This document shows, in pieces, positions 23,997 through 26,823 of a DNA stretch of 64,000 bases; the first letter of the stretch is position 1; every line of letters begins with the position of its first letter. The position numbers and the translations under genes were made by a program. The stretch is taken from contig SFHG01000001.1 in the NCBI GenBank assembly GCA_004555765.1, positions 20,005 to 84,004 of the forward strand. Direction: 5' to 3'. The notes below the pieces were generated by a model. The model was not told the origin of the DNA. It made no database searches and worked only from the letters and a program-made list of their open reading frames with translations. This DNA is from Bacteroidales bacterium (GTDB lineage: Bacteria > Bacteroidota > Bacteroidia > Bacteroidales > Porphyromonadaceae).

Positions 23997-24947
23997 ATGG
24001 AAACCCAAACATTATCTTCCACCCATACTGTGCAAAAGGGTGGCACAAGGTCATCCGGAATCTGGAACGGCATTCTCTCCGCCGCCACTTTCGGTCTCAT
24101 ACCACTCTTCTCCATTCCCGAACTGAATGCGGGGATGAGTACCAACGGCGTACTCTTTTACCGCTTCCTCTTCGCCTGCATCCTGATGGTGGGCGTACTG
24201 CTCTTGAACCGCAAAAGCCTCGCCCTCTCGCTCCGAGAACTGCTCCTTATGGCGCTCTTCGGAATCCTGTACGACGGCTCGGCGGTCTGCCTCTACTACG
24301 GCTACCGGTATATGTCAAGCGGCGCGGCGACGACGCTCCTTTTTATGTATCCCGTTTGGACGGTTGTCATTATGGCGATTTTCTTCCGCGAGCGGTTGGC
24401 ACCAAAGACCCTCCTTGCCATACTCCTTGCCCTCTCCGGAGTCTACCTCCTCTCCGGCGGCGGATCCGTGAACCCCGATGCCCCGTGGTATGCCCCCGGC
24501 GTGGTACTGATGTCGGGACTGAGCTACTCCGTCTATATGGTACTCGTCGATCGGCTCGGAGTCCGGGAGATGGGCAGTCTCAAGCTGACGTTTTACTGCC
24601 TCTTTTTTGCCCTCCTCTTCCTGACCGCCTATTTACTCATAAGCGGAGCAGGCATTGAGCAGGTGCCGAACACCCCCTCGTGGGTCAACCTCTTCCTCCT
24701 CGGTCTCGTCCCCACCGTCCTCTCCAACGTCCTCCTCATTAAGTCCATCGCTCTGGTAGGCTCCACACTTGCCGCGATACTGGGGGCGTTTGAGCCGGTG
24801 ATTGCCGTCGTCGTGGGTGTTTCCCTCTTGGGCGAAGCTTTCACACTCCGTTCTGCCATGGGCGTCATCCTCATCATCACAGCCGTCACACTCCTCGTCT
24901 TTAAGAAAAAAGCACCCCATACCGTCCGAAAGGAGGTACGGGCATAG
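23997..24947 (+). CDS. EamA/DMT-superfamily transporter
   Basis: About 10 predicted TM segments in two halves (..LFYRFLFACILM.. and ..LGEAFTLRSAMGVILIITAV..). The first ATG is used; the ORF-track start is a TTG at 23967. Confidence 0.8.
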   Translation: METQTLSSTHTVQKGGTRSSGIWNGILSAATFGLIPLFSIPELNAGMSTNGVLFYRFLFACILMVGVLLLNRKSLALSLRELLLMALFGILYDGSAVCLYYGYRYMSSGAATTLLFMYPVWTVVIMAIFFRERLAPKTLLAILLALSGVYLLSGGGSVNPDAPWYAPGVVLMSGLSYSVYMVLVDRLGVREMGSLKLTFYCLFFALLFLTAYLLISGAGIEQVPNTPSWVNLFLLGLVPTVLSNVLLIKSIALVGSTLAAILGAFEPVIAVVVGVSLLGEAFTLRSAMGVILIITAVTLLVFKKKAPHTVRKEVRA

Positions 24948-25021
24948 AAGGGGAAAAGGTACAGACCGGGGAGAAAAGATTGGTCCGTGTCTCGCTTCGG
25001 TGAGACACGGACCAAAATTAT
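24932..25021 (+). repeat. Left 90-bp direct repeat flanking the MACPF islet (includes the last codons of the EamA gene)
   Basis: ggaggtacgggcatagaaggggaaaaggtacagaccggggagaaaagattggtccgtgtctc-GCTTCGGT-gagacacggaccaaaattat. It matches 26734..26823 except for the loop. Confidence 0.85.
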
Positions 25022-25126
25022 GCCGTAAGGCTCTGAACGCAGAAACTCTTGTCTTCTATCCAGATTAACCGGTTCTCTTCCTTTGCACAACCGGCTTATC
25101 CGTAAATGAGCCCCACACCGGGAGAC

Positions 25127-26539
25127 TTACTTATTTTTAATCATAATATTGTTCCAAGAAAAGTGATCGTCAAATCCTTCTCTCGGCACTATAGGATTGA
25201 TCGCAAAAAAACACTGTGCTGTGGGTTCATCCGCCCGCAGTAACTTAAAGTCACGGGTAAGGTACCCGCCCGTCTTATGTGTGAACGTCGCTTTTCCATT
25301 CGGATAAATATGGAGCATCCAGAGACTCGAATCGGAACTTCCCTGTCCTATCGCACTCAAACTAAAGCGATTTATTTCATTTCCATAGTAGACAAAGACA
25401 TCAGAAGTATCAAATGCGGTAGCGGTAAAATACACGAATTCACCAAAGAGTTTGATTGGCTCAAAGGACTCAGGATTGCAAATCACATACTGAATCTCTT
25501 TTCCCGGATTAGCCGCATGCAGGATGCCACAGGCGTATTTCACTTTGAGGCACATATCCGGAATGAGGTCGGGAATCGCAATCAACTTCGTAGATTTATC
25601 CAATGATATAAAGGGATTGTCACCCGGTCTTACCTGTGCGTAGAACTTATCTATCTCAATTCCCGGCATCTCACCGAATTTGAAAACTCCGGACGGGTTT
25701 TTTAGATTTTTGGGATAGTAATCACTGCCTCCCTGTGTGTAATGTATAGTTATATCTTTACTATTCGTCTTGGACTTATTCGCCGTATGCACGTCCAACG
25801 TCGCACCGAAAACAGAAAAAGCTATATCTAAGCCTTCTTGTTCGGAGAATACAGAAGAACGGGCAAAGATCACACAGTCGGAAAACGGTCCCAAGTCATA
25901 AGCCGTAACCAAGTGCGTCCCATATTTCTTCACCAAATCTGCTGCAGACAAGTCAGACAAATCCTTGAAGAAGTTTCGCCTGATATAGTGTTGGCAGTCT
26001 TTTTCGCCCGCATCAAGACTTACCCTGTATCTGGTCAAATACTTAAACGATCTATAGATATGGGACTTGGACGCATATCTGTCGTTTTTCTTGTACTTGA
26101 CATTGAACGTTACGTCTTTGAACTTCCCATCAAGAGAGATTCCTATACTATCGATATTATAGCTGTTGGTTACAGTTTCTACATCCGAGCCCTTAAAGAT
26201 CCCCGGCTCTTCGTTATCAACGAGAATTTGCGGTGCATCAGCATCAGACAAATCGACATCTTCCTTCCACGGGTTCCATGGGGTGCCGTTTTTTATCTTT
26301 TGCATATCCAACACGGGGTACCGACTGATGCCGTCCCGATCTTCCCTTCGATGCGTGACGAGGTTAAAACCTCGTCCGATAAATCGTTCGGGAACGAACC
26401 CGGTCTCAGCAGTCCTCAAGTTGAGTTCCACCCGTGGACCGGTGTCTTGCGTGTAGTCCACCGGGATGTCATCCTGTTTGTGCGTGCATGATGCAAAAGC
26501 CATCACGCAAGAGACGAATACAAGCGAAGCTGTCTTCAT
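25127..26539 (-). CDS. MACPF-domain-like secreted lipoprotein (putative pore-forming toxin, BSAP-like)
   Basis: Start taken at MKTASLVFVSCVMAFASC (lipobox). KKYGTHLVTAYDLGP is a near match to the MACPF signature Y-G-T-H-[FY]-x6-G-G. The gene is markedly AT-richer than its flanks. The domain call was not verified by a search. Confidence 0.6.
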   Translation of the reverse strand: MKTASLVFVSCVMAFASCTHKQDDIPVDYTQDTGPRVELNLRTAETGFVPERFIGRGFNLVTHRREDRDGISRYPVLDMQKIKNGTPWNPWKEDVDLSDADAPQILVDNEEPGIFKGSDVETVTNSYNIDSIGISLDGKFKDVTFNVKYKKNDRYASKSHIYRSFKYLTRYRVSLDAGEKDCQHYIRRNFFKDLSDLSAADLVKKYGTHLVTAYDLGPFSDCVIFARSSVFSEQEGLDIAFSVFGATLDVHTANKSKTNSKDITIHYTQGGSDYYPKNLKNPSGVFKFGEMPGIEIDKFYAQVRPGDNPFISLDKSTKLIAIPDLIPDMCLKVKYACGILHAANPGKEIQYVICNPESFEPIKLFGEFVYFTATAFDTSDVFVYYGNEINRFSLSAIGQGSSDSSLWMLHIYPNGKATFTHKTGGYLTRDFKLLRADEPTAQCFFAINPIVPREGFDDHFSWNNIMIKNK

Positions 26540-26635
26540 GATGTGGGTTTGTAAAATAGTTGTAAGTTTTTCCGGTCGACTCGGATTTAGGTTTCGTCGG
26601 CACTCCGATGACCGAGCCGTTTCCTTCTTGTTTTG

Positions 26636-26643
26636 CAAATTTA
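26636..26643 (-). promoter_or_regulatory. Candidate -7 box (TAAATTTG) for the MACPF gene
   Basis: The reverse strand reads TAAATTTG, about 97 nt upstream of the ATG at 26539 and inside the islet. Confidence 0.4.
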
Positions 26644-26733
26644 CCAATAAAAAACCAAACCACAAATAACGACGACAAAGAGTATAGCCCCATTCAAAAA
26701 CACCCGAATCACAAGTACTCAATGAGACTTTGG

Positions 26734-26823
26734 GGAGGTACGGGCATAGAAGGGGAAAAGGTACAGACCGGGGAGAAAAGATTGGTCCGTGTCTCACCGA
26801 AGCGAGACACGGACCAAAATTAT
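26734..26823 (+). repeat. Right 90-bp direct repeat flanking the MACPF islet
   Basis: Same 90 bp as 24932..25021, but the 8-nt loop reads ACCGAAGC, the reverse complement of GCTTCGGT. Confidence 0.85.

Follow-up and report, generated by a model that had tools for sequence, protein, structure and literature searches.

In the 64,000-nucleotide (nt) stretch of Bacteroidales DNA analysed here (positions 20,005 to 84,004 of contig SFHG01000001.1, assembly GCA_004555765.1; hereafter the window), a 1712-nt segment of low guanine-plus-cytosine (GC) content, carrying a gene for a putative MACPF lipoprotein, lies between a gene for an EamA-family transporter and clpB, bracketed by two copies of a 90-nt repeat. 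This segment is a strain-variable accessory islet of a Porphyromonas-like Bacteroidales species, located in the convergent EamA–clpB intergenic terminator. By analogy with characterised proteins, its product appears to be a new and very divergent MACPF lipoprotein resembling the BSAP toxins of Bacteroidales, and the locus shows unusual features, namely the 90-nt duplication, a conserved partner gene that is missing from the window and a possible inversion of the whole islet.

The site is found in three states among strains: empty, with a one-gene islet and with a two-gene islet. Conspecific contigs were located by looking up the exact 316-amino acid (aa) product of the EamA gene in public assemblies. 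Six conspecific contigs (L058, L059 and L061–L064) are empty, with EamA followed by exactly one copy of the 90-nt sequence and then by clpB. The same empty arrangement is found in a metagenome-assembled genome (MAG) of a sister species (Porphyromonas sp. bin-117; L001, JASBZK010000058.1), whose flanks are 93–95% identical to those of the window. A preliminary description of the window, made from its sequence alone, had read the segment as an acquired islet and had proposed a search for such an empty site in relatives; the segment is indeed an accessory islet. L058 and L059 are ENA contigs of 102 and 68 kb, and a collapse of the 90-nt repeat during assembly is an unlikely source of the empty contigs (ENA k141/metaSPAdes, 68–102 kb). 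The one-gene islet of the window is also present in L060 (GCA_022772935.1), which is 99% identical to the window, while the two-gene islet, with a repeat spacing of 2820 nt (2.8 kb), is found in L002/L057 (GCA_028726165.1). In the window, the unit of presence and absence is the islet proper (25022–26733, no strand assigned, delimited by composition and by site comparison) plus one repeat copy, 1802 nt in total. The MACPF gene is identical between strains whose flanks differ by 1–1.5%.

The two repeat copies, found by repeat search and assigned to no strand, are located at 24932–25021 on the EamA side (copy 1) and at 26734–26823 on the clpB side (copy 2). They are in direct orientation, spaced by 1802 nt and identical at 84 of 90 positions, a match whose origin by chance is impossible. 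All of the six mismatches are confined to the 8-nt loop of a hairpin, which reads GCTTCGGT in copy 1 and ACCGAAGC in copy 2. These loops are exact reverse complements, so that the two 36-nt hairpins (24980–25015 and 26782–26817, no strand assigned, from repeat search and folding) form a perfect inverted repeat of each other. The preliminary description had seen this pattern correctly, and had also placed the start of copy 1 in the last codons of the EamA gene; indeed, copy 1 begins 16 nt ahead of the end of the EamA open reading frame (ORF) (...G GAG GTA CGG GCA TAG; stop codon 24945–24947), and copy 2 thus holds a duplicated gene end. On the other side, the repeat does not reach clpB, the stop codon of which (26851–26853) is 27 nt beyond copy 2. 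Copy 1 is made up of the EamA 3′ end, a 32-nt spacer with GGTAC-type motifs, the hairpin and AATTAT, and 48 of the 90 nt are specific to this locus (the EamA end), outside the dispersed hairpin family described below.

The 90-nt sequence is the native EamA–clpB intergenic terminator region, present once in every empty site. Hairpin 1 has a 14-bp perfect stem with the loop GCTTCGGT, and its plus-strand RNA folds into a stem of 16 bp capped by a UUCG tetraloop. As minus-strand RNA, hairpin 2 presents a UUCG tetraloop followed by UCUUUUCUCC, on account of which it can be assigned as the terminator of clpB. Folding stability is high (z = −5 to −7). On the minus strand, TCTTTTCTCC comes after each hairpin, a terminator-like geometry at both copies, and hairpin 1 is likely the terminator of the MACPF gene. 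Judging from this arrangement, after the duplication copy 2 would terminate clpB and copy 1 the inserted gene.

The orientation of the 8-nt loop is polymorphic in the conspecific empty sites: it reads ACCGAAGC in L058, L059, L061 and L062, and GCTTCGGT in L063 and L064 (hairpin at around 5984–6019, or around 1488–1523 in L064), and the two-gene islet has an identical loop in both repeat copies. Since both orientations occur in empty sites, the flip is not an insertion scar, and the significance given to it earlier is not supported. Recurrent inversion of the loop between the perfect stem arms, independent of the islet, would explain the flips.

A further rearrangement is seen in L003 (ENA ERZ27309546 k141_56989; 1400–1640), a contig 99.9% identical to the window. 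In L003, the MACPF 3′ end runs through the hairpin into clpB, with the equivalent of window 24980–25126 joined to that of 26782–27332, and the junction is a palindrome with 20-nt arms, ATAATTTTGGTCCGTGTCTC-ACCGAAGC-GAGACACGGACCAAAATTAT. The sequence expected across an islet-inversion junction is ATAATTTTGG-hairpin-CCAAAATTATTTGT. Because L003 joins the MACPF 3′ end to clpB through the hairpin, the islet would be inverted between the hairpins there. This independent metagenome contig, the only one of its kind, may represent a true inversion variant or, with lower probability at k = 141, an assembly artefact.

The MACPF gene (25127–26539, minus strand; supported by the ORF list, profiles and a structural model) is the sole credible gene of the islet. 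The Bacteroidetes −7 promoter box has the consensus TAnnTTTG, and a box that fits it, TAAATTTG, is located within the islet on the minus strand (26636–26643), 97 nt upstream of the MACPF ATG, and is also found in L002. The protein of 470 aa starts with MKTASLVFVSCVMAFASC; its lipobox (...AFASC18) ends at Cys18 and is followed by an acidic stretch (C-T-H-K-Q-D-D). Nearly all family members have the lipobox Cys, with a K/D-rich sequence after it (family consensus C-K-D), and the T-H-K-Q-D-D after the Cys resembles a lipoprotein export signal. A single minus-strand gene with its own −7 box and a lipoprotein signal, as described initially, is what the islet holds. The MACPF domain covers residues around 35–345 and is followed by a beta-rich C-terminal domain at around 349–470. 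The segment YGTHLVTAYDLGP at residues 206–218 contains the signature, Y206-G-T-H-L-VTAYDL-G217-P, which is a relaxed, not strict, match to Y/W-G-T/S-H-F/Y-x6-G-G. In the family, Y206 is conserved at 90% or more, and G207, T208, H209 and G217 do not vary; L occupies position 5, and A or P replaces the last G.

Three independent lines, namely predicted structure, a profile comparison with PDB and a large profile search, establish that the lipoprotein, although very divergent, has a MACPF fold and is homologous to MACPF proteins. An AlphaFold2 (AF2) model built from a 23-sequence alignment reached a predicted local distance difference test score (pLDDT) of 80 and a predicted TM-score of 0.81. When it was compared with PDB by Foldseek, all of the 47 matches at E≤1e-3 were MACPF proteins: Plu-MACPF (2qp2, 6e-10), Mpf2Ba1, GNIP1Aa and BT_3439 came at the top, then pleurotolysin B, perforin, MPEG-1 and complement C6–C9. 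The sequence profile found GNIP1Aa and perforin as its sole matches in PDB, aligned at the signature (YGTHLVTSYNLGA vs YGTHFITAVDLGG of perforin). A family-profile search over 1.84 billion representatives retrieved 653 proteins at E≤1e-3. Ten of the distant relatives, retrieved at E 1e-25 to 1e-11 over profile positions around 1–350, were tested; all passed the Pfam MACPF gathering threshold (30–59 bits), and eight weakly matched BSAP5a_fam. Within the family itself, 22 of the 23 members match Pfam MACPF at E<0.1 (best 3.1e-5). The MACPF-like lipoprotein of the preliminary description is in this way upheld, the protein of the window itself staying below the gathering threshold of PF01823, and the subfamily missed by the Pfam and NCBIfam thresholds amounts to about 36 representative clusters at 50% identity. 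The C-terminal domain at around 349–470 is confident in the AF2 model (pLDDT 85–94), and more distant profile relatives have only the N-terminal ~340 residues in common and carry other C-termini. The ratio of nonsynonymous to synonymous substitution rates (dN/dS) of the MACPF gene is 0.15 against a 95%-identical allele, indicating purifying selection.

In many loci, the MACPF gene does not stand alone. A partner gene follows it within 5–80 nt in L002, L004, L009, L015, L012 and many metagenome loci, and encodes a lipoprotein of ~355–365 aa. The partner co-diverges with the MACPF protein (53% identity where MACPF identity is 52%, and 26% where it is 32%), and its gene is also under purifying selection (dN/dS 0.15). 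It has no significant Pfam family match, with a weak but recurrent match to DUF4848 in four of six members (best E 2e-4); an AF2 model from three usable sequences gave a pLDDT of 42.6. In an hhalign comparison of the partner with the MACPF profile, only the signal peptides align, and the partner is no detectable MACPF paralog. The normal unit of the family is two genes, the MACPF gene and a co-diverging lipoprotein gene, and the window has a truncated form of it.

The window, L060 and L003 depart from the two-gene form exactly at the MACPF stop codon, where 89 nt (25038–25126), present only in these three, replace the ~1.1-kb partner gene. This segment has no similarity to any compared locus beyond its own copies in these three. 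The 16 nt between it and copy 1 (25022–25037, no strand assigned) are an islet end in common with the two-gene version of L002. No partner gene was found elsewhere in the window by tblastn. At least three assemblies (window, L060 and L003) keep the MACPF protein unchanged with no partner, so that the partner is not an indispensable immunity factor in these strains; it could be a resistant receptor, an immunity factor or an accessory factor. The preliminary description had found no mobility gene and no immunity or resistant-receptor gene between the repeats. The former holds, while the latter is true of the truncated version only, since the normal unit has two genes; the puzzle of the absent partner gene is in part resolved by this.

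The composition of the islet is clearly distinct. Its GC content is 0.446 against a window mean of 0.559 (standard deviation 0.025, 1.7-kb windows), and it is both the lowest-GC 1.7-kb window and the largest tetranucleotide distance within the 64 kb, so the AT-richness noted by eye from hand counts is confirmed by a sliding-window check. However, low GC turns out to be a trait of the module itself: its GC content is 0.42–0.50 against 0.57–0.60 for the flanks in nearly every lineage, including a fixed locus between the genes for pyruvate kinase and an ABC transporter. Across L009, L015, L018–L023, L027–L045 and L052–L056, the MACPF gene (with the partner where present) has a GC content 7–18 points lower than that of its flanks in almost all high-GC lineages. 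The cause could be frequent transfer or compositional constraint. Because the trait is shared by nearly all lineages, low GC is by itself no evidence of recent arrival. Furthermore, the insertion is old: a 92%-identical allele of the two-gene islet (L012, SRR24653753) abuts the same repeat junction, with synonymous divergence (dS) of 0.15 for the MACPF gene and 0.33 for the partner gene, comparable to the dS of 0.23–0.27 for core genes between sister species. Of the earlier proposal of an acquired segment, the presence and absence of the islet among strains stands, and composition as a sign in itself of recent arrival does not. In the sister MAG with the empty site, a different MACPF and partner module (52% and 53% identical, respectively) is present at another locus (L004 8001–10875, JASBZK010000035.1), between a sulfatase gene and methylmalonyl-CoA mutase genes; it is not flanked by repeats, and adds a 102-aa ORF and a 31-nt perfect hairpin (10625–10692).

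No recombinase or transposase gene lies between or beside the repeats, which enclose the MACPF gene with or without its partner and are flanked by EamA and clpB. Likewise, there is no tRNA or transfer-messenger RNA (tmRNA) gene in 20000–32000, the viral contig collection holds no family relatives and gives no sign of phage carriage, and none of 32 other loci, including the 52%-identical module of the sister MAG, has direct or inverted repeats of 20 nt or longer flanking the module. An insertion sequence or transposon was rejected: there is no transposase, and the islet ends, GCCGTAAGG... and ...GAGACTTTGG, are not inverted repeats. A 90-nt duplication is also far longer than known target-site duplications. 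An integron cassette was rejected as well, as the repeat is locus-specific and single in empty sites and its perfect-stem hairpin has no attC-type features, as judged with no formal attC search run.

The hairpin of the repeat is one member of a dispersed intergenic family in this genome, similar to repetitive extragenic palindromic (REP) sequences. The arm motif has 22 matches against 2.8 expected, with a consensus of roughly GAAAA-n-TTTGGTCCGTATCTCG-loop-CGAGATACGGACCAAAATTTTC and related GGTACAGACCG units. Copies are frequently arranged in tandem arrays with a 46-nt period, in which the stems co-vary and the loops differ. Members of the family in the window are located at 9485–9546, 17020–17106, 20409–20450, 29746–29827, 33266–33363, 36462–36545, 39191–39289, 40921–41047, 43059–43155, 47645–47757, 49724–49865, 55139–55228 and 61666–61769. 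A 73-nt repeat pair 1.7 kb apart (39191 and 40921) was considered as a second cassette and rejected: it brackets a core gene of host GC content and consists of two REP-like arrays. The exact 36-nt pattern from the 90-nt repeat had no match in JGI metagenomes.

As for the neighbours, the EamA gene (23997–24947, plus strand; Pfam EamA E=5.7e-34) encodes the 316-aa product in public assemblies; its ORF extends back to 23967, and its last 16 nt, including the TAG stop codon, are inside copy 1. clpB (26851–29451, minus strand, 866 aa) is the core gene of the right flank and is co-oriented with the MACPF gene; a look-up of its exact product in public assemblies found none on record. Directly upstream of the clpB start (29451), 29470–29593 contains a 21-nt repeat in three tandem units (AATTAGTCGACTnnnCnGGAA) and a pair of 39-nt repeats, which may be a regulatory operator array. 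A release-factor gene with PCRF and RF-1 domains (22626–23750, minus strand) is annotated at either 321 or 373 aa, depending on the assembly. A CTTTGAC motif is located on the minus strand at 23682–23688, just upstream of the 321-aa ORF, and the difference in length together with this motif is consistent with the classical +1 programmed frameshift of prfB. In an Rfam scan of 24500–27200, the sole match was sub-threshold and to a small nucleolar RNA model inside EamA; this match, to the archaeal C/D-box sR30 (24850–24905, minus strand, 30.5 bits against a gathering threshold of 38), lies in EamA coding sequence and is regarded as due to chance.

The account favoured here combines an accessory islet, a target duplication, a truncated BSAP-like MACPF module and upkeep by homologous recombination, and we give it a probability of about 0.6. 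A single old insertion would have duplicated the 90-nt target, which consists of the EamA 3′ end and a REP-like bidirectional terminator hairpin, possibly by a replication template switch at the hairpin or by Campbell-type integration of a circle, and would thereby have provided a terminator for both clpB and the inserted gene. The polymorphism may then be kept by homologous recombination between the 90-nt repeats through excision and re-integration of a circle, for which the predicted junction is ...GAGACTTTGG + 90-nt repeat + GCCGTAAGG..., or, once DNA has been taken up, by homologous recombination in the conserved genes on either side. Neither route would need a dedicated site-specific recombinase. 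The partner gene would have been lost later in one lineage, and the reversed loop would be an independent and recurrent hairpin-loop inversion. As for function, the protein is probably a bacteria-killing pore former like the BSAP toxins: it would be lipidated and exported to the cell surface or to vesicles, its C-terminal domain would bind a surface receptor on related bacteria, and its MACPF domain would then oligomerise into a beta-barrel pore. This fits the published architecture of BSAPs, lipoproteins that carry a signal for export and in which a MACPF domain is joined to a receptor-determining C-terminal domain (PMC12853789; bioRxiv 10.64898/2026.08.05.742979).

Several points weigh against this account. 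The origin of the 90-nt target duplication is not explained by any testable step, and for no individual strain can it be decided whether the islet was gained or lost. In any one genome the two copies have the same sequence despite a dS of 0.15–0.33 among the islet alleles, so that gene conversion, selection or repeated excision and re-integration has to be invoked. On the side of function, Pfam MACPF (PF01823) matches the protein with 16.2 bits only (E=0.012, residues 145–218; gathering threshold 21.5), and the sole NCBIfam match is BSAP5a_fam with 17.7 bits (E=1.2e-3), far below its cut-off of 500. Unlike the characterised BSAP loci, the empty sites of the conspecific contigs hold no counterpart gene and no receptor ortholog for the islet to replace. 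Finally, at least one Bacteroides MACPF protein, encoded next to an O-antigen locus, had no detectable antimicrobial activity (PMC4999547).

Other readings differ mainly in how the islet is moved or in what the protein does. It is rather doubtful, if still quite conceivable, that the islet is an old resident and that the empty sites are secondary losses via the 90-nt repeats, with a locus in decay that loses the partner first and then everything. The 92%-identical L012 allele at the same junction, with its dS in the range of sister-species core genes, would agree with such a history, as would the absence of the partner from the lineage of the window and the low GC that the family shows even where related species all carry the module at one fixed locus (L009, L015 and related loci). 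Still, the duplication and the foreign composition presuppose that an insertion once took place; the MACPF gene has stayed intact, is under purifying selection and does not differ between strains with flank differences of 1–1.5%; and the different module allele elsewhere in the empty-site sister MAG speaks for turnover, not only loss. The preliminary description had read the repeats as attL/attR-like junctions of site-specific insertion, a reading which in its plain form is not supported, given a repeat that is the local terminator region and the lack of a recombinase, of a tRNA and of flanking repeats in the 32 other loci. In a modified form, the repeats would be attL and attR of a mobilisable cassette served by a recombinase encoded elsewhere, for which a tyrosine recombinase and, acting on the hairpin, a REP-associated HUH/Y1 transposase are candidates. 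What comes and goes among strains is exactly the islet with one copy of the repeat, which would suit this form, and so would a perfect hairpin of a genome-wide REP-like family within the repeat, the inverted islet of L003 with breakpoints in the hairpins and two cargo versions with the same junctions. The same lacks count against it, however, and 48 of the 90 nt are specific to the locus, not part of the dispersed hairpin family; moreover, 90 nt of perfect identity suffice for RecA-dependent recombination. We regard this form as improbable. Still more speculative, and given little credence, is a combined view in which the REP-like hairpins are active recombination sites that insert (with a long duplication), excise and invert recombinase-less cassettes, the cassette being here a MACPF toxin module, and in which this module with its two lipoproteins is an antibacterial system of a new, two-part kind, the second lipoprotein setting specificity or immunity.

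With respect to function, the MACPF lipoprotein might instead act on host cells or membranes, or have a non-lytic surface role, which would make the islet a niche-adaptation gene. The top structural matches (Plu-MACPF 2qp2, Mpf2Ba1, GNIP1Aa and BT_3439) are insecticidal or uncharacterised, some Bacteroides MACPF proteins showed no antibacterial activity (PMC4999547), and the MACPF protein unchanged after loss of the partner in at least three assemblies suggests that self-immunity is evidently not needed. Against this reading, the producers of BSAPs likewise manage with no immunity protein of their own (PMC4999547). Besides, the best NCBIfam affinity is to the BSAP family, both for this family (weakly) and for its profile-linked relatives, and the lipoprotein–MACPF–C-terminal domain layout and strain-level presence or absence match those of the characterised BSAPs and CSAP-1 (PMC12853789, PMC13245386). 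On balance, a role outside bacterial antagonism seems unlikely.

Should the protein prove to be an active toxin, the range of BSAP-type MACPF antagonism would come to include high-GC Bacteroidales of the Porphyromonas-like kind, through a subfamily which is below the current Pfam and NCBIfam thresholds and nearly always of low GC content relative to its host. The natural series of three states in one species (empty, toxin only, and toxin with partner) makes the roles of the two genes testable by strain competition. Moreover, with its duplicated 90 nt, its flipping loop and an apparent inversion of the islet, the locus would make a compact case in which terminator hairpins influence how accessory genes are gained, lost and rearranged in the absence of dedicated mobility enzymes.

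The closest known systems are the BSAPs of Bacteroidales, and the analogy with them drawn in the preliminary description is reasonable. Like BSAP-1 to BSAP-4 and NCBIfam BSAP5a, the protein begins with a lipoprotein signal, has an acidic stretch behind the cysteine, and continues with a MACPF domain and a distinct C-terminal domain (PMC12853789, PMC4999547). In BSAP-1 the C-terminal domain binds the receptor, and by analogy the predicted beta-rich C-terminal domain may do so here. As with BSAPs, the gene is strain-variable within a species, is carried on a small segment with no mobility genes and belongs to the order Bacteroidales. Unlike BSAPs, it has marginal sequence similarity to the family (17.7 vs 500 bits for BSAP5a_fam; Pfam MACPF below gathering), its module has a conserved downstream lipoprotein, deleted in the window, the islet lies between the two copies of a duplicated 90-nt target, and the host is a high-GC Porphyromonas-like bacterium, not a gut Bacteroides. 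Among proteins of known structure, the best Foldseek matches, Plu-MACPF (2qp2), BT_3439 (3kk7), GNIP1Aa (6fbm) and Mpf2Ba1 (8b6u), are similar in overall size and likewise combine a MACPF domain with a beta domain at the C-terminus (E 6e-10 to 4e-8, probability 1.0), whereas identity is 11–14% and full-length TM-scores are only 0.33–0.38; these four are insecticidal or of unknown role and are not known in repeat-bounded islets.

The DNA architecture has its own relatives. As in integrative islands with att duplications, such as those targeting tRNA or tmRNA genes and the NBU type of Bacteroides, a gene 3′ end is duplicated in direct repeats and exactly one copy is found in empty sites, but the islet has no integrase, tRNA, transfer or mobilisation gene, its cargo is 1.7–2.7 kb, and the repeat is absent around the module elsewhere. 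Small hairpin-loop inversions and the palindromes of REP and bacterial interspersed mosaic elements (BIME) offer a parallel in the perfect 14-bp stem with an 8-nt loop found in either orientation among strains, and the REP/BIME-type palindromes also in the dispersed intergenic family with tandem arrays. In contrast to them, one hairpin here sits inside a 90-nt segmental duplication, and its two copies make a 36-nt inverted repeat that seemingly permits inversion of the whole islet.

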